Shown here: positions 9,400 to 48,096 of the stretch, one piece after another | Numbering within the stretch: the first letter of the stretch is position 1 | Layout of the letters: every line of letters starts with the position of its first letter | NCBI GenBank assembly: GCA_018661775.1 | Contig: JABJHO010000014.1 | Location: 42,305-106,304 of the forward strand | Direction of reading: 5' to 3' | From: Candidatus Magasanikiibacteriota bacterium | Lineage (GTDB): Bacteria > Patescibacteriota > Patescibacteriia > Magasanikbacterales > UBA922 | Length of the DNA: 64,000 nucleotides | Translations under genes and position numbers: made by a program | Notes under the pieces: model-generated | What the model saw: the letters and a program-made list of their open reading frames with translations, nothing else | Told to the model about the DNA's origin: nothing | The model's database searches: none

Positions 9400-10176
9400 T
9401 TATGTTATTAATCTGCGAATTTCTAAGATTTTTGCGCTTTTTGCACGGCCAAATGTTTCATTTGCTTCACCTATTTTTTCATGCTCTTGCCAGGTCTGCT
9501 GTGATAGATCTTTTTTTGTGTCTGTAACGGTAATGTTTCCCTGTCTAATACCATGATTGTATTTTCCATCTGCAAGCCACGCAAGACTGTGTGTATAATG
9601 AATTATTTTCGGTGCACCACCTTCGTAGTCTACTTGGTGCACAATAAGTATATGGTCAAGATCATGTCGTTTTCCTGTATCAAGCATAATAATGCAATCT
9701 CCAGGTTCTATAGTGTTAAGAGAGATCGTTTGGCTGTTTTTGTTGTCTGCCAAAACACGTACATTTGTATTTTCAATGGTGCGGAATTTTCTCACAAGCC
9801 GTCTCAATAGATTGTTGGTTTTTGGAAATGACAAACGTGTGTGCAATGGTTTTGTTGTTTGTGCAATCGTTTGGGCGTTGAGAATGTAATACGCAAGCCC
9901 CGAGCAGTCAATACCAATAGCATGATCTACAAGAAATTTTTTTACCTCTGTCTGAGAAAGTGTCGTAAGGTCAATATGTTTTTTTCTTGCAATAATTTCT
10001 ATTTCTTGCACAATATCTTCTACGGAACCTTTTCCTAAGTGCACACGCAAACCTGCCCGAACCTTTGTCTTTTTATTGTTCATGTACGGGCAAGCAACTG
10101 TGTGTTTTCCAATGGGCATGTGCAGATATGCTTCAATAATATCCATTGCTGGTTTCACTATTTTTTTTGTTGTCAT
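9400..10176 (-). CDS. cytoplasmic NlpC/P60-like (papain-fold Cys/His) hydrolase candidate
   Basis: 258 aa, no signal peptide. GIDCSGLAYYIL matches the NlpC/P60 catalytic Cys motif, and a downstream DHILIVHQV region supplies a candidate catalytic His. Confidence 0.4.
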   Translation of the reverse strand: MTTKKIVKPAMDIIEAYLHMPIGKHTVACPYMNNKKTKVRAGLRVHLGKGSVEDIVQEIEIIARKKHIDLTTLSQTEVKKFLVDHAIGIDCSGLAYYILNAQTIAQTTKPLHTRLSFPKTNNLLRRLVRKFRTIENTNVRVLADNKNSQTISLNTIEPGDCIIMLDTGKRHDLDHILIVHQVDYEGGAPKIIHYTHSLAWLADGKYNHGIRQGNITVTDTKKDLSQQTWQEHEKIGEANETFGRAKSAKILEIRRLIT

Positions 10177-11435
10177 AAAGCGTTTTCTATAATGGTTACA
10201 ATCTTTTTTCCGAGTGCATTATATACACCATGTTTTGTCATAATGCTTTCTTTAGACTGAATGCGTAACAGGTCAGACCCTAGTGTGGTGGTTGTGTACG
10301 GGATAACAGAGAGCCCAGCTTGCTCAAGTGCTTTTTTTGTTTGCGTTACGTCTATGTCTTGTGCGTCTTTTGTGAGCCTGAGAACAAGTTGTGCCCCACG
10401 TGTTACAGGAACAAGTTTGTGATCTTTTGTTTCAAGGTTTGCCAGTGCTGCGACATGCGCTTCAAACGTTGTCATGAGATTTTTTACCTGTTTTGCTATG
10501 GATTGTTGCTGTAAGTGTGATTCAAAAATAACAGAAGCTGGTTGCCTTGCATTAATCTCCAAAAGATATACGTTTCCTGTTTCTTCTTCTACGATAATGT
10601 CTATCCCAAAAGCCCCGCGCCATCCATCGTGTTGCATTTTTTTTCCAACTGCATGGGCTATTTCTTTACACTTCGCCTGTTGATCATATGAGAGTATGTC
10701 TTTTGGAAGACCCCAGTCATTGCCGATGGTGGCAAAAGGTTGGTCGGTAAAAGGAGAGAGCCCAGTAATTTGGTAACTCAATGATCCTGTGTGGATCGCA
10801 TCTTTTGAGACAACGCCGTTGCAAGTAAACGTGGGGCCGTTAATATAGGCCGACACTTTTACCGGTCTTTCGGGAAATGTTTTTTGGAGTTCTTGTAGTT
10901 GTATTTCGCTGTCTATTAATACTGTTCCACTTCCGGTGTGTCCCTGGTTAAATTGCAATACAAATGGTTCATAATTCCATGCAATGTTTTTGCATACATC
11001 TATGTGGTGAGGGGGAAGATGTGTAGTCATTGTACCAAGCCACGCAACTTGTGAAATTTTCTCTTCTATGTTGCTTGCTAGGTTGGTAAGCGGGTTAAGT
11101 AGTGGGATATTATGTGTCTTGCAAATCCGCTCTATTTTTTTTGTAGGTTTGTATACCATAATACCACCAAATGCGTTTTCACCACATTCTTTGGTTTTTT
11201 TTGCAATGTACGCGAGTGATTTTGGATGCTCAAGGAGTTGCCAAGAATCCAAAAGTGTAGTAGTGTCAATGAGTACAATGTGTGACCTTTCTTGGGCATA
11301 TGATTTGGCAAACTCGGTCACATTTGAGATAATAGAAAAATCAGAGATAGACATGTCCATCCCCGATGCTCGCTCAAAAGAGCGATTTACATATATAATG
11401 TGGTGATTTTTAAGCCACGTGAGTAATTTTTCCAT
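10173..11435 (-). CDS. ATP-grasp carboxylate-amine/peptide ligase (Ddl-like or side-chain ligase candidate)
   Basis: Core ATP-grasp signature GAFGIDIIVEEETGNVYLLEINARQ with a pre-ATP-grasp N-domain. Start taken at ATG 11435 (MEKLLTW) because the longer ORF overlaps murB upstream. The 4-nt overlap with the downstream gene implies an operon. Confidence 0.6.
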   Translation of the reverse strand: MEKLLTWLKNHHIIYVNRSFERASGMDMSISDFSIISNVTEFAKSYAQERSHIVLIDTTTLLDSWQLLEHPKSLAYIAKKTKECGENAFGGIMVYKPTKKIERICKTHNIPLLNPLTNLASNIEEKISQVAWLGTMTTHLPPHHIDVCKNIAWNYEPFVLQFNQGHTGSGTVLIDSEIQLQELQKTFPERPVKVSAYINGPTFTCNGVVSKDAIHTGSLSYQITGLSPFTDQPFATIGNDWGLPKDILSYDQQAKCKEIAHAVGKKMQHDGWRGAFGIDIIVEEETGNVYLLEINARQPASVIFESHLQQQSIAKQVKNLMTTFEAHVAALANLETKDHKLVPVTRGAQLVLRLTKDAQDIDVTQTKKALEQAGLSVIPYTTTTLGSDLLRIQSKESIMTKHGVYNALGKKIVTIIENAL

Positions 11436-11468
11436 ATTTAGGCTTAGTATAGTAAAAAAAGCCGTTTT

Positions 11469-12449
11469 TTGCAACCTTTGATATATTTTATGGATCCATT
11501 TTATACACAACTCAAAACCTACGGAAAAGTGCGATGTAATGAATCTTTGGCAAAGCATATTACGTATAAGATTGGTGGCCCTGCCAAGTATTTTGTGATT
11601 GTAAAAGATATGTCCCATCTCCAAGCGCTTTTGCAGTTTATTGACGGAGAAGGGGTAAAACGTATTATCTTGGGTGGAGGAAGTAATATATTATTTCCAG
11701 ATGAAGGTTTTGATGGGGTGGTAATACAGATTATTGATAAGACGTTCTCGATTTCTGGTCCCAAGGTGGAGGCAGTTGCAAGTGCACTGATGAAAGATAT
11801 TTCTGAGGCAACTGTTGCCGCAGGTTTGGCGGGTTTTGTTTGGGCAATTGGTGTTCCTGGAACTATAGCAGGTGCGTTGCGAGGTAATGCTGCGTATAAT
11901 GGGGTTGCAATGGGGGATGCTGTGTCCAGTGTGGAGGTGTACAGAGATGGAGAGGTGGTGCTGTTATCAAACCATGATTGTGTGTTTGGTCCAAAAGATT
12001 CAGTGTTTAAGCATAACAATGATGTGATTTTGCGTATTTGGCTTGCATTAAAAAAAGGAGAGAAGCAAAAGATTGCTCAAGAGGCAATGGAGAATATTTC
12101 ATATAGACAACGCACTCAGCCAGAAGGTAAAGGTTCAGCGGGTTGTGTATTTAAGAACATAGTTGTTGAAGAAAAAGATGTGGATAATTTTTTGGCAAAA
12201 TTTAATGATAAAAAAATACAGGAATGTATTACAAAATATCATAAAATTCCTGTTGGCCGTTTAATTGAATTACTTGGACTAAAGGGGACTGTTTCTGGGA
12301 ATGCACAGATTTCTGAGGTGCATGGTAATTTTGTGATTAATTTGGGCGGTGCAAGTGCAAAAGATGTGTGCATCTTAATTGAACTTATACGGGAAAACGT
12401 GTACAATACCTATGGGTTTGAATTAGAGGAGGAAATTCAAATTGTTTAA
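11469..12449 (+). CDS. murB: UDP-N-acetylenolpyruvoylglucosamine reductase
   Basis: FAD-binding N-terminus (ITYKIGGPAKYF), GGGSNIL motif, ~320 aa. TTG start at 11469 or ATG at 11490. Confidence 0.85.
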   Translation: MQPLIYFMDPFYTQLKTYGKVRCNESLAKHITYKIGGPAKYFVIVKDMSHLQALLQFIDGEGVKRIILGGGSNILFPDEGFDGVVIQIIDKTFSISGPKVEAVASALMKDISEATVAAGLAGFVWAIGVPGTIAGALRGNAAYNGVAMGDAVSSVEVYRDGEVVLLSNHDCVFGPKDSVFKHNNDVILRIWLALKKGEKQKIAQEAMENISYRQRTQPEGKGSAGCVFKNIVVEEKDVDNFLAKFNDKKIQECITKYHKIPVGRLIELLGLKGTVSGNAQISEVHGNFVINLGGASAKDVCILIELIRENVYNTYGFELEEEIQIV

Positions 12450-15817: not shown

Positions 15818-17854
15818 ATGAACAATCAAGAAGGGACAAAGCGCGTAAGAATGCGTTGGGGAATGGTAAGTATTACTATTTGTTTTTTGGCTATGCTCGG
15901 GTTTATATTCCCGAAGTATACAAATGTTGCTATTAACAATATTAATTCTTTGGCATATCTAGGATTACCAAACATATCGGAAGAGTCTTTTCGGTTGGGT
16001 CTAGATTTGCAAGGCGGTGCACATTTAATATATGAGGCAGACGTACAACACGTGGCAATCGAAGATCGTGCAACTGCAGTAGAAGGTGTGCGAGATGCGG
16101 TTGAGCGCCGAGTAAACGGGACGGGAGTTTCTGAACCAAATGTCCAAACAGCGCGTGTGGGTGAGGCATATAGGCTTATTGTTGATCTTCCAGGTATTGA
16201 AAATGTAAATGAAGCAATAAAACTTATAGGGGAGACACCGGTGCTAGAATTTAAGGAAGAAAATGATGTACCATCAAGGGAGCTTAATGAAGAAGAGAGA
16301 GAGTTAATAACACAAACAAATAGTACAGCAAAATCACGTTCAGAGGAGATAGCAGCCCGAGTGGCAGGTGGTGAGTCTTTTGAAGAGCTTGTTTCTGAGC
16401 TTTCTGAAGACACGATCACAAAAAATAATGGAGGGAGTTTGGGAAATGTTGAGGCAGGTCTGAGTATAACAGGCCCACTTTATGATTGGGCGAAGACTCA
16501 TGTGGATGGGGACATTTCTGAAACACCAATAGAAACAGAGCTGGGATATCACGTTGTAAAGCGCGGGAAAGATGGTGAGTCAAAAGAAAAAGTTTCAGCG
16601 AGCCATATACTAATCTGTTATTTTGGTGCACAGGGTTGTGAAGATGAAACATACACAAAAGAGTCGGCACTAGAAAAAGCACAAGAACTTTTTACTCAAG
16701 CAAATGCTGAAAATTTTGCTGATTTAGCAAAAGAATTTTCTACTGGACCAAGTAAGGGTGCGGGTGGGGACCTTGGTTCTTTTGGGCGCGGTATGATGAT
16801 ACCTGCGTTTGAAGAGGTAGTGTTTTCTGCAGAAGTGGGACAAATTGTAGGGCCAGTTGAAACTGATTTTGGGTATCATGTGATTTATAAGACCGATGTG
16901 GAGGAGGTTGCAACGTATGGCCTTGCTCATATTATGAGTAAAAAGCTAACAGAAAGAGAAGTTCTCCCACCGCAGGATTCATGGAAATCAACAGAGCTTT
17001 CCGGAAAACAACTTGAGCGGGCGGACGTTGCTATTGATCCGCAAACAGGTGCCGTACAAGTTTCTCTTGTTTTTGATAAGGAAGGAAAAAAACTATTTGA
17101 AGATATTACACGAAGAAACCTTAATAAACCTGTTGCAATCTTTTTAGATGGCTCTCCTATTAGTATACCAACAGTTCAGGCCGTCATCGGTGGAGGGGAG
17201 GCGGTGATTACTGGATCATTTACCATTCCAGAAGCAAAACTTTTATCTCAAAGACTTAATACGGGTGCATTACCTGTTCCTATTACTCTTGTATCCCAGC
17301 AGGCTATTGGTGCAAGTTTGGGGGCCGAATCACTGGTAAAGAGTTTGCATGCCGGAATAATTGCTATTATATTGGTAATGCTCTTTATGGTTCTGTATTA
17401 TAGATTACCAGGGGTACTGGCAGTTATTTCTTTAAGCATATATATTGTTGCTGCACTTGCTATTTTTAAATTAATAGGCGTGACATTGACACTAGCTGGA
17501 ATTGCTGGATTTATCCTCTCTATTGGTATGGCGGTTGATGCAAATGTACTGATTTTTGAAAGAATGAAGGAGGAGCTGCGCGAAGGGAAGAGTTTGAAAG
17601 TTGCGGTGGAAGAAGGGTTTGTGCGTGCGTGGACATCTATACGAGATGGAAATATTTCAACACTTATTACCTGTGTATTGTTGGTTGGGTTTGGTGCAAG
17701 TTTTGTTCAGGGGTTTGCTGCAACATTGTCAATTGGTATTTTATTGAGCATGTTTTCGGCGATTACCATTACACGATTGTTTTTGCGTGCAATAGTGCCA
17801 CTATTTTCTCGGTACGGCAATAGACTCTTTTTAGGATTTACTGAAAAAAAATAA
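15818..17854 (+). CDS. secD: protein-export membrane protein SecD with inserted tandem parvulin-type PPIase domains
   Basis: LGLDLQGG P1-domain start. Canonical P1 head (AIFLDG...ISIPTV...ITGSF) and six-TM C-terminus. Residues ~150-345 carry two parvulin signatures (GGSLG...ELGYHVV and SHILI...GGDLGSFGRGMMIPAFEEVVF...FGYHVIYK). Confidence 0.9.
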   Translation: MNNQEGTKRVRMRWGMVSITICFLAMLGFIFPKYTNVAINNINSLAYLGLPNISEESFRLGLDLQGGAHLIYEADVQHVAIEDRATAVEGVRDAVERRVNGTGVSEPNVQTARVGEAYRLIVDLPGIENVNEAIKLIGETPVLEFKEENDVPSRELNEEERELITQTNSTAKSRSEEIAARVAGGESFEELVSELSEDTITKNNGGSLGNVEAGLSITGPLYDWAKTHVDGDISETPIETELGYHVVKRGKDGESKEKVSASHILICYFGAQGCEDETYTKESALEKAQELFTQANAENFADLAKEFSTGPSKGAGGDLGSFGRGMMIPAFEEVVFSAEVGQIVGPVETDFGYHVIYKTDVEEVATYGLAHIMSKKLTEREVLPPQDSWKSTELSGKQLERADVAIDPQTGAVQVSLVFDKEGKKLFEDITRRNLNKPVAIFLDGSPISIPTVQAVIGGGEAVITGSFTIPEAKLLSQRLNTGALPVPITLVSQQAIGASLGAESLVKSLHAGIIAIILVMLFMVLYYRLPGVLAVISLSIYIVAALAIFKLIGVTLTLAGIAGFILSIGMAVDANVLIFERMKEELREGKSLKVAVEEGFVRAWTSIRDGNISTLITCVLLVGFGASFVQGFAATLSIGILLSMFSAITITRLFLRAIVPLFSRYGNRLFLGFTEKK

Positions 17855-34280: not shown

Positions 34281-34370
34281 GGAGAGATGGCAGAGTGGTC
34301 GAATGCGCAGCCTTGGAAAGGCTGTGTACGAGCAATCGTACCGCGGGTTCGAATCCCGCTCTCTCCGCCA
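34281..34370 (+). tRNA. tRNA-Ser (anticodon GGA), class II with long variable arm, CCA encoded
   Basis: Acceptor GGAGAGA/TCTCTCC, anticodon loop TTGGAAA, T-arm GCGGGTTCGAATCCCGC, ends GCCA. Confidence 0.8.
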
Positions 34371-34378
34371 ATATAAAA

Positions 34379-34466
34379 GGAGAGGTGCCGGAGTGGTTGA
34401 ACGGGGCGCTCTCGAAAAGCGTTGTCCGGTTTTCTCGGACCGCGGGTTCGAATCCCGCCCTCTCCG
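34379..34466 (+). tRNA. tRNA-Ser (anticodon CGA), class II with long variable arm, no encoded CCA
   Basis: Acceptor GGAGAGG/CCTCTCC, anticodon loop CTCGAAA, identical T-arm to upstream tRNA. Confidence 0.75.
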
Positions 34467-34627
34467 CGAATATACAAGAGGTTATGCGGTTTCGCTTCGT
34501 TTCACCCAAATTTTCACACACAGTGGTAAGTCCTTTTTAATTTTTTTTGGGAAATAAAAAACCGCCTCAACCTTTTTTGGTATGTTGGCGGTAAGTAGTT
34601 GGTTTGCTTAGTTCTAGCCTAGCAAAC

Positions 34628-42152: not shown

Positions 42153-43007
42153 ATGTTTTGTCTATTTTTGCTAAAGTATTCTGTTATGAAACAAAAAAAT
42201 TTCTCAAAAGCACCGATACAACGCTCTCTCCTACGACGTATTCTTGGGCGAGTGTATTTTTGGTGTCGTCGTATATGGTATTGGCACATGAGTGGTCGTG
42301 CATTTGCAACCTCTCGTTCTACAAAGCTTCTTCCGCATAGAGTATTTTCACATAAGACTGTATTGTTGCGAAAATTAAAGGATGTGGATATGTGGATGCA
42401 ACATAATAAGGTTGTTAATCTTAATATTGCTACACAAAAAATAGACGGTCTTGTAATTCGCCCCGGAGAAACCTTTTCGTTTTGGCGGCAGGTTGGTAAC
42501 ACAACCACAAGAAAAGGGTATGTGTCTGGTATGGAACTGTTTAATGGTACTGTACGAAGTGGTGTTGGTGGTGGTTTGTGTCAGTTAAGTAATTTAGTAT
42601 ACTGGATGACCCTTCATACGCCACTTGATGTGGTGGAGCGGTGGCGACACGGGTATGACGTGTTTCCTGATGTGCACCGTACCCAACCTTTTGGGAGTGG
42701 TGCAACCTGCTCGTATCCGAATATTGATTTACAAATACAAAATAACACACCCCATACATTTCAATTATCTACTTGTCTTTCTGACACTCATCTTGTTGGA
42801 AGCTGGCACTGTTCTCGTCACATAAAAGAGCAGTATGAGATTTATGAAAAAGAACATAGTATTGCTCACGAGGTTTGGGGAGGGTATACACGGAGTAATA
42901 CACTGTATCGTAAGGTGGTTGACGTCGACACAAAGCAATTACTCAATGATTATTTTGTCGTAGAAAATAACGCAATTATGATGTATACGCCGTTTCTCAA
43001 AGAGTAA
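42153..43007 (+). CDS. VanW-family protein
   Basis: VIRPGETFSFW...G...GY....G..GGGLCQ(L/V)S..LY VanW signature. Probable start at ATG 42186. Confidence 0.7.
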   Translation: MFCLFLLKYSVMKQKNFSKAPIQRSLLRRILGRVYFWCRRIWYWHMSGRAFATSRSTKLLPHRVFSHKTVLLRKLKDVDMWMQHNKVVNLNIATQKIDGLVIRPGETFSFWRQVGNTTTRKGYVSGMELFNGTVRSGVGGGLCQLSNLVYWMTLHTPLDVVERWRHGYDVFPDVHRTQPFGSGATCSYPNIDLQIQNNTPHTFQLSTCLSDTHLVGSWHCSRHIKEQYEIYEKEHSIAHEVWGGYTRSNTLYRKVVDVDTKQLLNDYFVVENNAIMMYTPFLKE

Positions 43008-43063: not shown

Positions 43064-43636
43064 TTATACTTGCCGCACTTGGTGCGTTAAGCTGAATATA
43101 GCAAATAATAGACTTATTCCCAAAATACTGTTTGCAGTTACCACGCTTACTTCCAGGCTTATGCCACAAAAACTCTTTAGCAGAGGAATGAGCATGAGCA
43201 CACTTATGCCGATTTTTTCGATATTCGTTTTTAGTTTTCCAGATATTGACGCCATTATATTAGGTGTTTCACCCATTTTTTTTCCGTATACTATTTTATA
43301 TACACGAAGCATGGTGAGTGCCAGGCCAATTGATATAATAGGTACACTGATTATCGCGTAGACTTCTGACCAAAAATATAGTAAAAAACTGATGGTAAAT
43401 ACTTTGTCTGCAAGAGGGTCGAGGAATGCTCCGGTGTGCGAACTTTGCCCAAACACTCTTGCAGCCTTGCCGTCAAAATAATCCATTGACCATGCAAAAC
43501 CAAAAAGTATGGAGGAGTGTAGATGCATTTCTTTTTCTTGAAAATGCAAAATGAATGGAATGCATAGCATGCCAAAAAGGGTAAGGGTATTAGGGAGCCA
43601 GCCTTTTATGGCGTCCTTGTATATAAAAGTAAACAA
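43064..43636 (-). CDS. pgsA: CDP-alcohol phosphatidyltransferase (PgsA-like)
   Basis: DGKAAR...G...D(P/A)LADK signature, 190 aa. Confidence 0.8.
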   Translation of the reverse strand: MFTFIYKDAIKGWLPNTLTLFGMLCIPFILHFQEKEMHLHSSILFGFAWSMDYFDGKAARVFGQSSHTGAFLDPLADKVFTISFLLYFWSEVYAIISVPIISIGLALTMLRVYKIVYGKKMGETPNIMASISGKLKTNIEKIGISVLMLIPLLKSFCGISLEVSVVTANSILGISLLFAIFSLTHQVRQV

Positions 43637-43721: not shown

Positions 43722-43749
43722 TTGTCAATATTAAAAAATTTTGTATAAT
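43722..43749 (+). promoter_or_regulatory. sigma70-like promoter upstream of pentose-phosphate gene block
   Basis: TTGTCA - 16 bp - TATAAT. Confidence 0.4.
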
Positions 43750-44884: not shown

Positions 44885-47254
44885 ATGAATACATTAAAAA
44901 AAGCTAACATCCCAACAGTTATTGTCGTCTTTGGTGCGACAGGAGATTTGATGGAGAAAAAAATTGCTCCATCTCTTTTGCATTTGTACAAAAATGGTAA
45001 GTTGCCAACTCAGTTTAAGATTGTCGGCGTTGCCAGGAAAAGTAATAGCGATGGTCAGTTTCAGAAATTAGTTGGGGATCATTTAAAAAAACATTCTAAG
45101 CAACATCCATCAAAAGAAAAGTTTAAAAAGTTTTTGGATTATTTTACTTATCAATCAGGCCAGTTTCAAGAACCCAAGACTTATAGCGAGCTTAGTAAAA
45201 AACTTAAGCAGATAGATGATGAGTGGGGAGTATGTACTAATAAGCTTTTTTATCTAGCAGTCCCGCCAAAGTTTTATCAAACTATATTTAATAATTTATC
45301 AGCTTCTGGACTGACTAAGCCTTGTAGTGAGGAAGAGGGTTGGACTAGAGTATTAGTTGAAAAGCCATTTGGCAGTGATTTAAAAACAGCCAAAGAATTA
45401 GAAGAGGTGTTGGGTAAGCTCTTTAGAGAGGAACAGATTTTTAGAATTGATCATTACTTGGCTAAAGAAATGCTGCAAAATATTTTGGCTGTTAGGTTTT
45501 CTAATAATTTATTTGAACAAACTTTTAATAATCGGTTTATTGATAGCATTGAATTATACTTACATGAAAAGAAAGGGGCCGAAGGTCGCGGTAGTTTTTA
45601 TGATAGCGTTGGAACCCTAAAAGATGTTGGCCAAAATCATTTGTTGCAGATGTTGGCTCTTGTCACTATGGATATGCCACAAAGTTATAATGCTAAACAT
45701 ATTCGTGACAAGAGGTATGAATTAATGAAACATTTAATTCCATTGAAAAAATCCGAGATGAGCACCAATACTTTTAGAGCTCAATACGAAGGATATACTC
45801 AGGTAGAGGGCGTTAATGCAAAATCAAAAACAGAAACATTTTTTAAACTGCAGTGCTTCTTAAATCATCCAAGGTGGCGAGATGTACCTATTACTATTGA
45901 AAGTGGTAAGGGTATGGCTGCACCTAAAAAAGGTATTGCTTTGAATTTAAAACACACTATGCCATGTTTGTGCCCTAAAGGCTCAGAGCATTATCGTAAT
46001 AAGATAATTCTTACTATGGAACCAGAAGAGGGTATTACAATTGAATTCTGGGCCAAGAAACCGGGATTTCAGTGGCAGATAGAAAAGAAAGAGTTGAAGT
46101 CTTTTTATCGTAAGAATGCCAAGCAGGCTCAGTATACAGAAGAGTATGAAAAACTTTTATTCGATTGTATTGTCGGGGATCAAACTTTATTTGTTAGCAC
46201 TAAAGAGGTCCTTGCAATGTGGAAGTTTATTGATCCAATTGTTAAAGCCTGGGAAAGTAAAATAGTGTCACTAGAAAAATATAAAAAAGGATCGAAGACT
46301 ATTTCTACTTCTGTAAAGTTTAGTTCAACTAAAGTTAAAGATGCAGGACAAATGCCTTTAGAAATTGGAATTGTTGGTCTTGGTAAAATGGGTGGTGGTC
46401 TTGCTAGGCAGTTATTAGAAAAAGGCTGGAAGATTCATGGTTATAACAGGAGCCCAGAGGAGACACGTAAATTAAAAAAAGATGGATTAATTCCAGAATT
46501 TAGCTTAGAGGATATGGTAAAGAATCTACCATCACCAAAGATTGTTTGGCTAATGGTTCCTTCTGGTAAGCCAGTTGATGAAAATATTAATAAGCTAGCA
46601 AAGCTTTTGGGTAAAGGGGATTATATTATTGATGGGGGTAATTCTTTTTTCCAAAATACTGTCAAACGATCTCGTAAAGTTACGGCTAAGAAAATTAATT
46701 TTATGGATTGTGGTGTGTCTGGAGGTCCCGAGGGAGCGCGCCACGGGGCTTGTTTGATGATTGGTGGTAAAAAAGTTGATTATGATTTCTTAAAGCCTTT
46801 GTATTCTGATTTGGCTATTCATCAAGGCGAAGAATTTTTCCCTGGTTATGGAGCTGGCCATTTTGTAAAGATGGTTCATAATGGTATTGAATATGGCATG
46901 ATGCAGTCTATTGCTGAAGGATTTGCGATTATGAGAAAATCAAAATATAAATTACACTTGCGTAAAATTGCAGAGGTTTATAACCATGGTAGTGTAATTG
47001 AATCTAGTTTGATCAATTGGATGGGAAATGCTTTTGCCTTATTTGGCGATGATTTAAAAGGTGTGTCTGGTAGAGCCTCACATAGTGGCGAAGGGCTTTG
47101 GACAACACAGGTAGCGCATTCTTTGGGAATATCCGATAAGGTTATTCACGAGTCACTAAAAGCTAGAGAGAGAAGCCAGAAAAAACCAAGTTACCAAGGT
47201 AAGATTATTCAGGCTTTAAGAAATCAGTTTGGCGGACATAATTTAAAAAAATAA
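44885..47254 (+). CDS. fused glucose-6-phosphate dehydrogenase (Zwf, N-terminal) and 6-phosphogluconate dehydrogenase-like (Gnd/YqeC-type, C-terminal)
   Basis: N-terminal GATGDL..KK dinucleotide motif, RIDHYLAKE active site. C-terminal IGIVGLGKMGGGLA Rossmann, DGGNS, GVSGGPEGA, GAGHFVKMVHNGIEYGMMQ 6PGDH motifs. Single 789-aa ORF. Confidence 0.8.
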   Translation: MNTLKKANIPTVIVVFGATGDLMEKKIAPSLLHLYKNGKLPTQFKIVGVARKSNSDGQFQKLVGDHLKKHSKQHPSKEKFKKFLDYFTYQSGQFQEPKTYSELSKKLKQIDDEWGVCTNKLFYLAVPPKFYQTIFNNLSASGLTKPCSEEEGWTRVLVEKPFGSDLKTAKELEEVLGKLFREEQIFRIDHYLAKEMLQNILAVRFSNNLFEQTFNNRFIDSIELYLHEKKGAEGRGSFYDSVGTLKDVGQNHLLQMLALVTMDMPQSYNAKHIRDKRYELMKHLIPLKKSEMSTNTFRAQYEGYTQVEGVNAKSKTETFFKLQCFLNHPRWRDVPITIESGKGMAAPKKGIALNLKHTMPCLCPKGSEHYRNKIILTMEPEEGITIEFWAKKPGFQWQIEKKELKSFYRKNAKQAQYTEEYEKLLFDCIVGDQTLFVSTKEVLAMWKFIDPIVKAWESKIVSLEKYKKGSKTISTSVKFSSTKVKDAGQMPLEIGIVGLGKMGGGLARQLLEKGWKIHGYNRSPEETRKLKKDGLIPEFSLEDMVKNLPSPKIVWLMVPSGKPVDENINKLAKLLGKGDYIIDGGNSFFQNTVKRSRKVTAKKINFMDCGVSGGPEGARHGACLMIGGKKVDYDFLKPLYSDLAIHQGEEFFPGYGAGHFVKMVHNGIEYGMMQSIAEGFAIMRKSKYKLHLRKIAEVYNHGSVIESSLINWMGNAFALFGDDLKGVSGRASHSGEGLWTTQVAHSLGISDKVIHESLKARERSQKKPSYQGKIIQALRNQFGGHNLKK

Positions 47255-47256
47255 CT

Positions 47257-48096
47257 ATGTATTTTTCAACAGCTGATGAAATGGAAAAACTTGATGAGCT
47301 TGCCGTAGAACATGGTCTTGAGATTAGACAGATGATGGAACTGGCTGGTTGGCATATGGTAGAAGTTTTTAATAAACTTAGTATTGGTTTATCCGACCAA
47401 ATTGTTATTGTTGTTGGTAAGGGTAATAAAGGTGGCGATGGGTTAAGCGCTGCTAGGCATTTAGTTAACCATGGCTATAAAAACATATCGATCATTTTAG
47501 TTTCTAAAGATATTAAGCCAGACTCACAGCATCACTTAGACTTGTTAGTCAAGATGGATATGCCAATTATGGTTTATTCAGAAAATCAAGACTTGGCAAA
47601 AGAAAAAATAGATTCAGCCGATATTATTATGGATTCATTGATTGGCTATCATTTACAAGGAGAACCTCGTGGAGACTTTGCTGAGTTAATTGAAATAATA
47701 AATAATGCATCAGGAAAAGTAATCTCTTATGATCTGCCCTCTGGGGTAGATGCAACCACAGGGGAGTGTCAGAAGGTTTGTATTAAGGCAGATGCAACTT
47801 TAACTTTAGCTATGCCAAAGAAAATTTTTAATACAAATTCGGGCAAGGAATCCTCTGGACAAGTGTTTGCTCTAGACATTGGTGTTCCAGAATTTTTATA
47901 CAACAAAATAGCATCAGGATCTAGGCCAGAATCAAACCATAGTGTGCGAAAAAATAGCGCCAATGCATCCGCTTCATTTAGGTTAATGTCTGTGTATTTT
48001 TCCACAGTCTCTAGTTGTGTGTCTTGGAACCAGTTTCCGCACATTGTTTCTTTCAGGTCTGACTTCATCCATGCAAATTTTTTATCTTTCACATAA
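47257..48096 (+). CDS. NAD(P)H-hydrate epimerase (YjeF N-terminal domain); domain ends ~47910, ORF reads through into a divergent tail
   Basis: VVGKGNKGGDGL and ...DIGVPEF YjeF_N motifs. Last ~60 codons non-conserved and antisense to a minus-strand ORF. Confidence 0.6.
   Translation: MYFSTADEMEKLDELAVEHGLEIRQMMELAGWHMVEVFNKLSIGLSDQIVIVVGKGNKGGDGLSAARHLVNHGYKNISIILVSKDIKPDSQHHLDLLVKMDMPIMVYSENQDLAKEKIDSADIIMDSLIGYHLQGEPRGDFAELIEIINNASGKVISYDLPSGVDATTGECQKVCIKADATLTLAMPKKIFNTNSGKESSGQVFALDIGVPEFLYNKIASGSRPESNHSVRKNSANASASFRLMSVYFSTVSSCVSWNQFPHIVSFRSDFIHANFLSFT

Follow-up and report, generated by a model that had tools for sequence, protein, structure and literature searches.

Proteins in which glucose-6-phosphate dehydrogenase (G6PD, encoded by zwf) is fused with 6-phosphogluconate dehydrogenase (6PGDH, the gnd product) have been reported, as G6pd-Pgd fused proteins, from candidate-phyla bacteria and one DPANN archaeon (mSystems 2024, PMC11237513). 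That report covers the fusion in one sentence, without anatomy, phylogeny, junction analysis or biochemistry. The same enzymes are joined in the same N-to-C order in a cytosolic protein of the diatom Phaeodactylum tricornutum (protein 54663 / XP_002183714.1; Kroth 2008, PMC2173943; Stover 2011, PMC3148214). G6PD is likewise fused to an oxidative pentose-phosphate pathway (PPP) enzyme, 6-phosphogluconolactonase (6PGL, the pgl product), in Plasmodium GluPho, the G6PD::6PGL proteins of Giardia and Trichomonas, and metazoan H6PD (PMC3148214). We analysed a zwf::gnd gene of a bacterium of the candidate phyla radiation (CPR), Candidatus Magasanikiibacteriota bacterium. The gene lies in a 64,000-nucleotide stretch, hereafter the window, of contig JABJHO010000014.1 (assembly GCA_018661775.1, positions 42,305 to 106,304, forward strand), and positions are counted from the first letter of the window. 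Our reading, to which we give a probability of about 85 %, is that this gene encodes a bifunctional enzyme that arose in reduced genomes by an ordinary mechanism, the loss of a stop codon in a coupled zwf→gnd pair.

The window protein is a member of the family of PMC11237513, with the same architecture and lineage and no essential difference. The architecture is thus already known from the literature, and the protein is a typical CPR representative of it. Our work adds descriptive details, of which the following are new as far as we found: the homology between the junction and coupled pairs of genes, the interleaving in the tree of fused with unfused forms, native actinobacterial copies, a clade-specific Cys/His loop, and a negative association of the fusion with an adjacent pgl. 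Like the window protein, the Phaeodactylum fusion has a short spacer (39 nt) with neither a stop codon nor a lactonase domain. It differs in being eukaryotic, lineage-restricted and presumably the product of an independent event, and no diatom protein is among the best 120 homologue clusters of our search. Its gene model was disputed, and post-translational cleavage has been suggested as possible. The first-pass annotation of this DNA, made from the sequence alone, implied that only G6PD-6PGL fusions were known, which the diatom protein contradicts. Whereas the G6PD-6PGL enzymes join consecutive steps, the window protein joins steps 1 and 3, with step 2 missing; H6PD (PDB 8em2) is a detectable homologue of its Zwf half. 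Each module is full-length and catalytically complete by sequence when set against the stand-alone enzymes, Zwf (TIGR00871; Leuconostoc mesenteroides 1DPG) and short-chain 6PGDH (Gluconobacter oxydans 6XEQ). The differences are the covalent joining, an HxxxCxC...H loop in Zwf, and an N-R pair in Gnd in place of the D-R of 6XEQ and 6VPB. We found no biochemical study of a natural bacterial G6PD-6PGDH fusion in the literature, only engineered or unrelated uses of the term.

The zwf::gnd open reading frame (ORF) runs in a single frame from its ATG, and in its 789-residue product a full Zwf comes first and a full short-chain 6PGDH second, about 18 residues apart (Table 1). This agrees with the first-pass annotation, which had proposed a one-ORF fusion of two complete enzymes on the basis of six motifs (GATGDL, RIDHYLAKE, GLGKMGG, DGGNS, GVSGGPEGA and KMVHNGIEYG), all of which are in the translation. 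The four Pfam domains that it named for checking (G6PD_N, G6PD_C, NAD_binding_2 and 6PGD) all matched, and curated NCBIfam models passed their cut-offs over the full length of both modules. The zwf model TIGR00871 scored 471.7 bits (cut-off 400.6), aligning aa 11-473 with profile positions 3-469 of 486. The gnd_rel model TIGR00872 scored 318.7 bits (cut-off 297.2), aligning aa 493-789 with positions 2-297 of 299, and the short-chain 6PGDH model PRK09599 / NF007161 matched end to end with 340.7 bits (cut-off 271). The protein stays well below the cut-offs of the long-chain gnd models TIGR00873 and NF006765. The Pfam 6PGD match is partial, covering the first 117 of 290 profile positions, a match typical of short-chain enzymes. 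No lactonase lies between the halves, as had been claimed: neither Pfam nor NCBIfam detects a lactonase domain in the short linker, and Pfam finds no Glucosamine_iso (PF01182) domain in the whole protein, which is therefore not of the G6PD-6PGL type. The public records (MBT4941659.1 and three other NCBI accessions) carry only the name 'glucose-6-phosphate dehydrogenase [Candidatus Magasanikbacteria bacterium]'. Because these records miss the 6PGDH half, name-based reconstructions of CPR pathways could wrongly score 6PGDH as absent.

We then investigated the distribution of the fusion. In a search of 5.8 billion clustered proteins, the best 120 clusters are all full-length fusions with both domain sets (768-826 aa, 52-73 % identity, 97-100 % query coverage), and the window protein is orthologous to the fused members over this range, in at least 120 fused clusters. 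Their named sources, almost all within Patescibacteria/CPR, are Roizman-, Levy-, Harrison-, Portnoy- and Taylorbacteria, 'Patescibacteria group' and one Woesearchaeota label; the protein so labelled (P0076) sits among CPR fusions. When aa 400-580, which span the junction, served as query in an exhaustive HMMER search, 15 representatives reached E ≤ 1e-30. About 25 representatives (50 % identity level) cross the junction, about a dozen of them at full length (738-808 aa). Among GTDB species genomes, where the reading frames of the matches were inspected, true single-ORF fusions occur in Wolfe-, Magasanik-, Doudna-, Kaiser- and Saccharibacteria, Minisyncoccia and others. At the DNA level, 28 loci hold both modules in one frame, G6PD before 6PGD, without a stop. 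High-GC fusions with 45-48 % identity are also found in four metagenome-assembled genomes (MAGs) of Coriobacteriia/Actinomycetes/Slackia (loci L010, L011, L012 and L013; ~10001-12370 each). Their GC content (0.65-0.69) and third-position GC content (GC3, 0.83-0.90) are the same as those of the flanks, indicating that these are native actinobacterial genes and not contamination. The first-pass annotation had called such a fusion rare. On the contrary, a large CPR clade has this architecture as its usual form, and it extends to Coriobacteriia/Actinomycetes.

Several candidates did not stand as fusions. In Chloroflexota, Ignavibacteria, Acidobacteria, Bacteroidota, Nitrospirota and others, tblastn had joined separate gnd→zwf genes into apparent full-length matches, and two metagenome loci with zwf→gnd in the same frame (L091 and L092) have a real stop codon. 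In the metagenome scan, whose peptide patterns were very generic, most hits were to distant loci without the fusion, and only L088 and L089 proved useful. Some taxonomic labels also deserve caution. The zwf/gnd of MAGs recorded as 'uncultured Gammaproteobacteria bacterium' (binchicken series; L004, L017, L019, L034 and L037) fall inside the CPR clade, so that the record taxonomy is probably wrong, and L008, labelled 'Actinomycetes' (GC 0.46), groups with Doudnabacteria.

The unfused relatives indicate how the fusion arose. In 16 CPR genomes, zwf and gnd are separate adjoining genes in the same order as in the fusion. Stop and start codons overlap as ATGA in L027, L041 and L043, and some other unfused CPR pairs have gaps of a few bases. 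More distant phyla have the opposite order, gnd→zwf(→pgl), always as separate genes and never fused. The start of unfused CPR gnd, 'MKKEIGIVGLGKMG', aligns with 'MPLEIGIVGLGKMG' of the window protein at Met490: the former begins M-K-K and the latter reads Q-M490-P-L, both continuing as E-I-G-I-V-G-L-G-K-M-G. By this alignment, Met490 stands where the ancestral gnd had its start codon. Stop-codon loss as the route to the fusion is well supported. The fusion would have arisen inside CPR, when a tightly or translationally coupled zwf→gnd pair lost the zwf stop codon. The order zwf→gnd would leave the trans-acting RX2FGXH C-terminal helix of 6PGDH free to reach the active site of a partner. The order gnd→zwf would bury this helix, which may explain why fusions are found only from the CPR-type order. 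In one Parcubacteria genome (L005, 3460-5868), placed within the fused clade, zwf and gnd share one frame with a single TAG between them; this TAG may reflect a recent fission or an error of sequencing, or it may be a stop that is read through or recoded.

In a neighbour-joining tree of concatenated Zwf and Gnd (100 bootstraps), the CPR zwf→gnd clade is recovered in 100/100 replicates with unfused lineages at its base, and the window protein lies inside the fused clade. The four high-GC actinobacterial fusions form one group (100/100) nested among the CPR fusions, which implies that the gene was long ago transferred horizontally between CPR bacteria and Actinobacteria, in one direction or the other. 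The phylum Actinobacteria includes hosts of cultivated CPR epibionts (Saccharibacteria). The actinobacterial fusions and the window protein together exclude the ten basal unfused lineages in 99/100 replicates; a clade of all fused forms does so in only 64/100.

Some points weigh against our reading, or at least against its details. The tree is a distance tree without model-based support. The unfused L005, L027, L033 and L052 fall inside the fused clade in 100/100 replicates, and L034 and L037 in 98/100; fused and unfused forms interleave, which is compatible with various numbers and directions of fusion and fission events. For all bacterial members, the G6PD and 6PGDH activities and the cofactor preference are predictions from sequence, and the cofactor call for the Gnd half is uncertain, since TIGR00872 is named as NAD+-dependent. 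For this genome, the negative result for pgl given below covers the 64-kb window only. Finally, an ATG preceded by AGGA at Met490 could yield a separate Gnd product in this organism.

In the mechanism that we propose, the N-terminal Zwf module would convert glucose-6-phosphate to 6-phosphoglucono-delta-lactone with reduction of NADP+. The lactone would be hydrolysed off the enzyme, spontaneously or by a hydrolase encoded elsewhere, and the C-terminal short-chain 6PGDH would convert 6-phosphogluconate to ribulose-5-phosphate and CO2, yielding a second NAD(P)H. Both modules presumably still oligomerise, joined by a short flexible tether. The probable benefit, in a very small genome, is that the two activities are necessarily co-expressed 1:1 and co-localised. 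Since a chemical step has to take place between their reactions, true substrate channelling is unlikely. The analysis shows the single ORF, the identity of its domains, the conserved catalytic residues, the repeated occurrence of the fusion and the homology of its junction to unfused pairs; the enzymatic activities, the NADP preference and the oligomeric state are inferred, as are what happens to the lactone and how selection would favour the fusion. A compact enzyme yielding two NAD(P)H per glucose-6-phosphate could interest builders of cofactor-regeneration systems.

The missing step raises a biological question, namely whether the oxidative branch runs without a lactonase in these organisms, with the fusion as compensation. 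The delta-lactone hydrolyses spontaneously within minutes, and E. coli pgl mutants keep oxidative-branch flux. Therefore, the pathway can run without a lactonase, although less cleanly. We examined the neighbourhoods (±10 kb per locus) by ORF clustering, Pfam identification and six-frame profile searches. A PF01182-type pgl lies directly beside zwf-gnd in 7 of the 16 unfused CPR loci and follows zwf in most gnd→zwf operons of other phyla, but it is found in none of the 28 fused loci (Fisher p = 3e-4 for fused versus unfused, not corrected for phylogeny). In the 64-kb window, a CPR Pgl profile had no match in the six-frame translation, and Pfam scans of 30 further ORFs gave no hit to either known lactonase type. 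Apart from the lactonase, the PPP operons of the closest relatives encode every enzyme of the pathway.

These observations would suit a fusion that is an adaptation to a lactonase-free branch. The fused lineages would have lost pgl, and the tethered 6PGDH would capture the spontaneously formed 6-phosphogluconate, so that less of the reactive lactone would escape or isomerise into a gamma-lactone, a dead end. We consider this unlikely. A gene missing from a 20-kb neighbourhood may still be present in the genome, and at least one patescibacterium is reported to encode 6PGL (PMC13059738). The association may merely reflect the shared ancestry of the fused clade; over ±10 kb per locus it is suggestive, not proof. 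Nor does the structural model described below give evidence that the active sites face each other. Furthermore, two fused loci have a hydrolase of the PF04199 'cyclase' family adjoining the gene or about 2 kb from it. This metal hydrolase (~208 aa, kynurenine-formamidase-like, with HxGTHxDxPxH) is encoded directly downstream of gnd in six loci and at a distance in a seventh (Table 1). All seven lack a PF01182 lactonase, and the seven loci with the lactonase all lack the cyclase. The cyclase may be a non-orthologous 6-phosphogluconolactonase. The wider proposal, in which the CPR and Coriobacteriia fused clade has no dedicated lactonase, the tether co-evolved with the loss of pgl, and PF04199 proteins serve sister lineages as a non-orthologous lactonase, is in our view a doubtful one.

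The fused ORF might also be an expression device only, giving two proteins by initiation at Met490 or by cleavage of the tether. The window gene has AGGA 3 nt upstream of the Met490 ATG, the tether at residues 482-488 is disordered and exposed in the model, and cleavage has been suggested for some diatom fusion proteins (PMC2173943). However, the Met490 column of 119 fused homologues reads L40/I29/M14/F11. In 20 fused loci the codon there is mostly not start-capable and no Shine-Dalgarno sequence is conserved. We therefore rejected a conserved internal start at Met490, and since residue, codon and Shine-Dalgarno sequence are all non-conserved, the full-length polypeptide is the conserved product. 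This is indirect support, from sequence comparison, for translation as one bifunctional polypeptide. The ATG and AGGA in the window gene are most simply a remnant. The linker is variable in sequence (the stretch corresponding to Y466-G495 is 19-40 aa long in fused homologues, median 28), with neither a protease site nor a conserved sequence. Two separate products are quite improbable on these grounds.

Bifunctionality itself is suggested by residue conservation, which was counted over alignments of 25 and 119 fused homologues. In the Zwf module the motifs G17-A-T-G-D-L22, E159-K-P-F-G163, R187-I-D189-H190-Y-L-A-K194 and Q250-N-H252 are present and invariant or at least 90 % conserved. E159, K160, P161 and G163 (EKPFG), H190, Y191 and K194 (RIDHYLAKE), N251 and the catalytic H252 are invariant in the 119 homologues, and G17-L22 (GATGDL) and R51 are at least 90 % conserved. 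The catalytic His and its Asp partner are those that we take, from established knowledge and PDB alignments, to match H240 and D177 of L. mesenteroides. In the Gnd module, which has G498-L-G-K-M-G503, G585-N586-S587, and K662 and E669 within KMVHNGIEYG, the invariant residues are G498, G500, G503, N586 (GGNS), S612, G613, G614, K662, H665, N666, E669, Y670 and R761. R779, F782, G783 and H785 of the C-terminal RX2FGXH motif are invariant as well. In tetrameric short-chain 6PGDH this motif binds substrate in the active site of the neighbouring subunit (bioRxiv 10.64898/2026.01.21.700892), and its invariance and free C-terminal position are consistent with oligomerisation, although the model is of a monomer only. 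That neither half varies at its catalytic and substrate-binding positions indicates that purifying selection acts on both activities.

The cofactor sites point the same way for both modules. The NADP-type residue R51 of Zwf lies in 'GVAR' and is at least 90 % conserved, and Gnd has N521-R522 where the short-chain structures 6XEQ and 6VPB have D-R. Both features would be of the NADP-compatible type, despite the NAD+ label of TIGR00872.

The best PDB sequence match of the Zwf module is 9emm (281.9 bits), and those of the Gnd module are the short-chain enzymes 6xeq, 6vpb, 4e21 and 8ihe. An AlphaFold2 model built on the 119-sequence alignment has two well-folded modules, with a mean predicted local distance difference test score (pLDDT) of 87.6, falling below 50 only at residues 1-5 and 482-488. 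The mutual placement of the modules is not confidently predicted; the predicted template modelling score (pTM) is 0.66, as expected if they are flexibly tethered. By Foldseek, the Zwf module matches solved G6PDs with template modelling (TM) scores of 0.85-0.9. The PDB hits 1h93, 1dpg and 1e77 have E ~1e-44 and target-normalised TM scores of 0.87-0.89, L. mesenteroides G6PD scoring 0.88. Neither the sequence search nor Foldseek found a PDB chain spanning both modules. A pseudo-enzyme, in which one half is degenerate and kept for structure or regulation so that the protein is effectively monofunctional, might be suspected from the public annotation, which mentions G6PD alone, and from the short Pfam 6PGD match. 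It is very improbable, as the full-length short-chain models TIGR00872 and PRK09599 match end to end above their cut-offs and none of the catalytic or substrate-binding residues of either half varies among the 119 sequences.

The Zwf module carries a CPR-specific loop of the form H357-x3-C361-L-C363-P-x(3-8)-H369. Among the 119 fused homologues both cysteines, C361 and C363, are invariant, and the conservation of H357 is at least 90 %. Several unfused CPR Zwf proteins have the loop as well and none of 12 outgroup Zwf does, and it is not tied to the fusion itself. PDB 9emm reads 'vPllif' at this position, and the loop is modelled as coil with lower pLDDT. Possible roles are those of a small Zn site or, on an enzyme that produces NADPH, of a CxC redox switch. 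We rejected the idea of a built-in lactonase substitute, as the motif is found in unfused CPR Zwf with an adjoining pgl (L021, L027, L029 and L030).

Lastly, related CPR genomes do hold unfused zwf→gnd pairs one stop codon or one base away from fusion, L005 with its lone in-frame TAG among them, but a merger of separate genes through a missed stop or an indel at the junction is excluded for practical purposes by exact-sequence look-ups and recurrence among homologues: the junction DNA (46200-46440) has no stop and no frame change, exactly this 789-aa protein recurs on 9 contigs that come from at least four independent assemblies, two of them NCBI MAGs, one a JGI metagenome and one an ENA assembly, and the open junction is kept in at least 120 diverged homologue clusters and in the 28 loci inspected at the DNA level.

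Table 1. Positions of the zwf::gnd gene, its parts and its neighbours in the window, and of PF04199 cyclase genes at other loci (locus coordinates).
Feature	Position	Strand	Basis and remarks
zwf::gnd fused ORF, complete	44885..47254	+	ORF listing; ATG start; 789 aa + stop
Zwf (G6PD) module	44924..46306	+	Pfam, TIGR00871; G6PD_N aa 14-199 (E 1.7e-61), G6PD_C aa 201-474 (E 4.7e-79)
Cys/His loop in Zwf module, aa 357-369	45953..45991	+	clade-specific (CPR)
Linker, aa 475-492	46307..46360	+	former Zwf C-terminal tail and zwf-gnd junction
Met490 codon, position of ancestral gnd start	46352..46354	+	alignment with initiator Met of unfused CPR gnd
Gnd module, short-chain 6PGDH	46361..47251	+	Pfam; NAD_binding_2 aa 493-644 (E 2.6e-40), 6PGD aa 658-768 (E 4.8e-19), C-terminal helix
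RX2FGXH substrate-binding motif, R779-x2-F782-G783-x-H785	47219..47239	+	C-terminal; conservation in 119 homologues
Best promoter-like site, TTGTCA-16-TATAAT	43722..43749	+	11/12, consensus match only; upstream of four-gene unit
Transketolase remnant, last ~141 aa	43777..44202	+	Pfam, Transketolase_C only; intact ORF; upstream operon member
Short transaldolase / fructose-6-phosphate aldolase, 224 aa	44207..44881	+	TAL_FSA E 7.7e-62; TIGR00875 288.9 bits, above cut-off
YjeF_N NAD(P)H-hydrate epimerase	47257..48096	+	PF03853 3.7e-40; TIGR00197 134.8 bits; downstream operon member
PF04199 cyclase directly 3' of gnd	L023 5430-6065		Pfam
PF04199 cyclase directly 3' of gnd	L028 12376-12996		Pfam
PF04199 cyclase directly 3' of gnd	L034 12555-13205		Pfam
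PF04199 cyclase directly 3' of gnd	L037 12563-13189		Pfam
PF04199 cyclase directly 3' of gnd	L043 12196-12822		Pfam
PF04199 cyclase directly 3' of gnd	L035 1360-1974		Pfam
PF04199 cyclase ~2 kb downstream	L008 14169-14795		Pfam

In the window, zwf::gnd is the third of four tightly packed genes with gaps of 2-4 nt (3 nt after the transaldolase gene and 2 nt before yjeF_N). Over the region as a whole, promoter-like sites do not exceed the number expected from shuffling. The two closest relatives (69 % and 60 % identity) have the operons rpiB-rpe-tkt(610 aa)-zwf::gnd and rpiB-rpe-tkt-tal-zwf::gnd, and elsewhere in CPR the fused gene stands alone. We therefore rejected these genes as conserved operon partners: ORF clustering (46 loci) and tblastn limit rpiB-rpe-tkt-tal to the close relatives of the window. 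In a tblastn comparison with the operon of the closest relative, the remnant tkt matches residues 470-610 of Tkt (610 aa) at 72 % identity, and no rpiB, rpe or further (N-terminal) tkt sequence is found in the window. The tkt C-terminal ORF is either a rearrangement scar or a retained stand-alone domain. The 5' position that holds rpiB, rpe and tkt in the relatives is taken in the window by a CDP-alcohol phosphatidyltransferase gene (43064-43636, minus strand) and a VanW gene (42153-43007, plus strand).

In these comparisons, adjacency of yjeF_N to zwf::gnd was seen only in the window species, where an NAD(P)H repair enzyme thus adjoins an NAD(P)H producer. The YjeF_N domain ends near aa 212 of 279, and the C-terminal ~65 aa are of low complexity and overlapped by an antisense ORF, so that the true stop may be misjudged. 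Elsewhere in the window, a SecD homologue (15818-17854, plus strand) contains a PPIC-type peptidyl-prolyl isomerase domain (Rotamase, aa 253-360) between SecD_1st and the P1-head, as though a chaperone domain had been inserted into this translocon subunit within its periplasmic part. Two adjoining tRNA-Ser genes (GGA and CGA; 34281-34467, plus strand) are the only RNA genes detected in the window.

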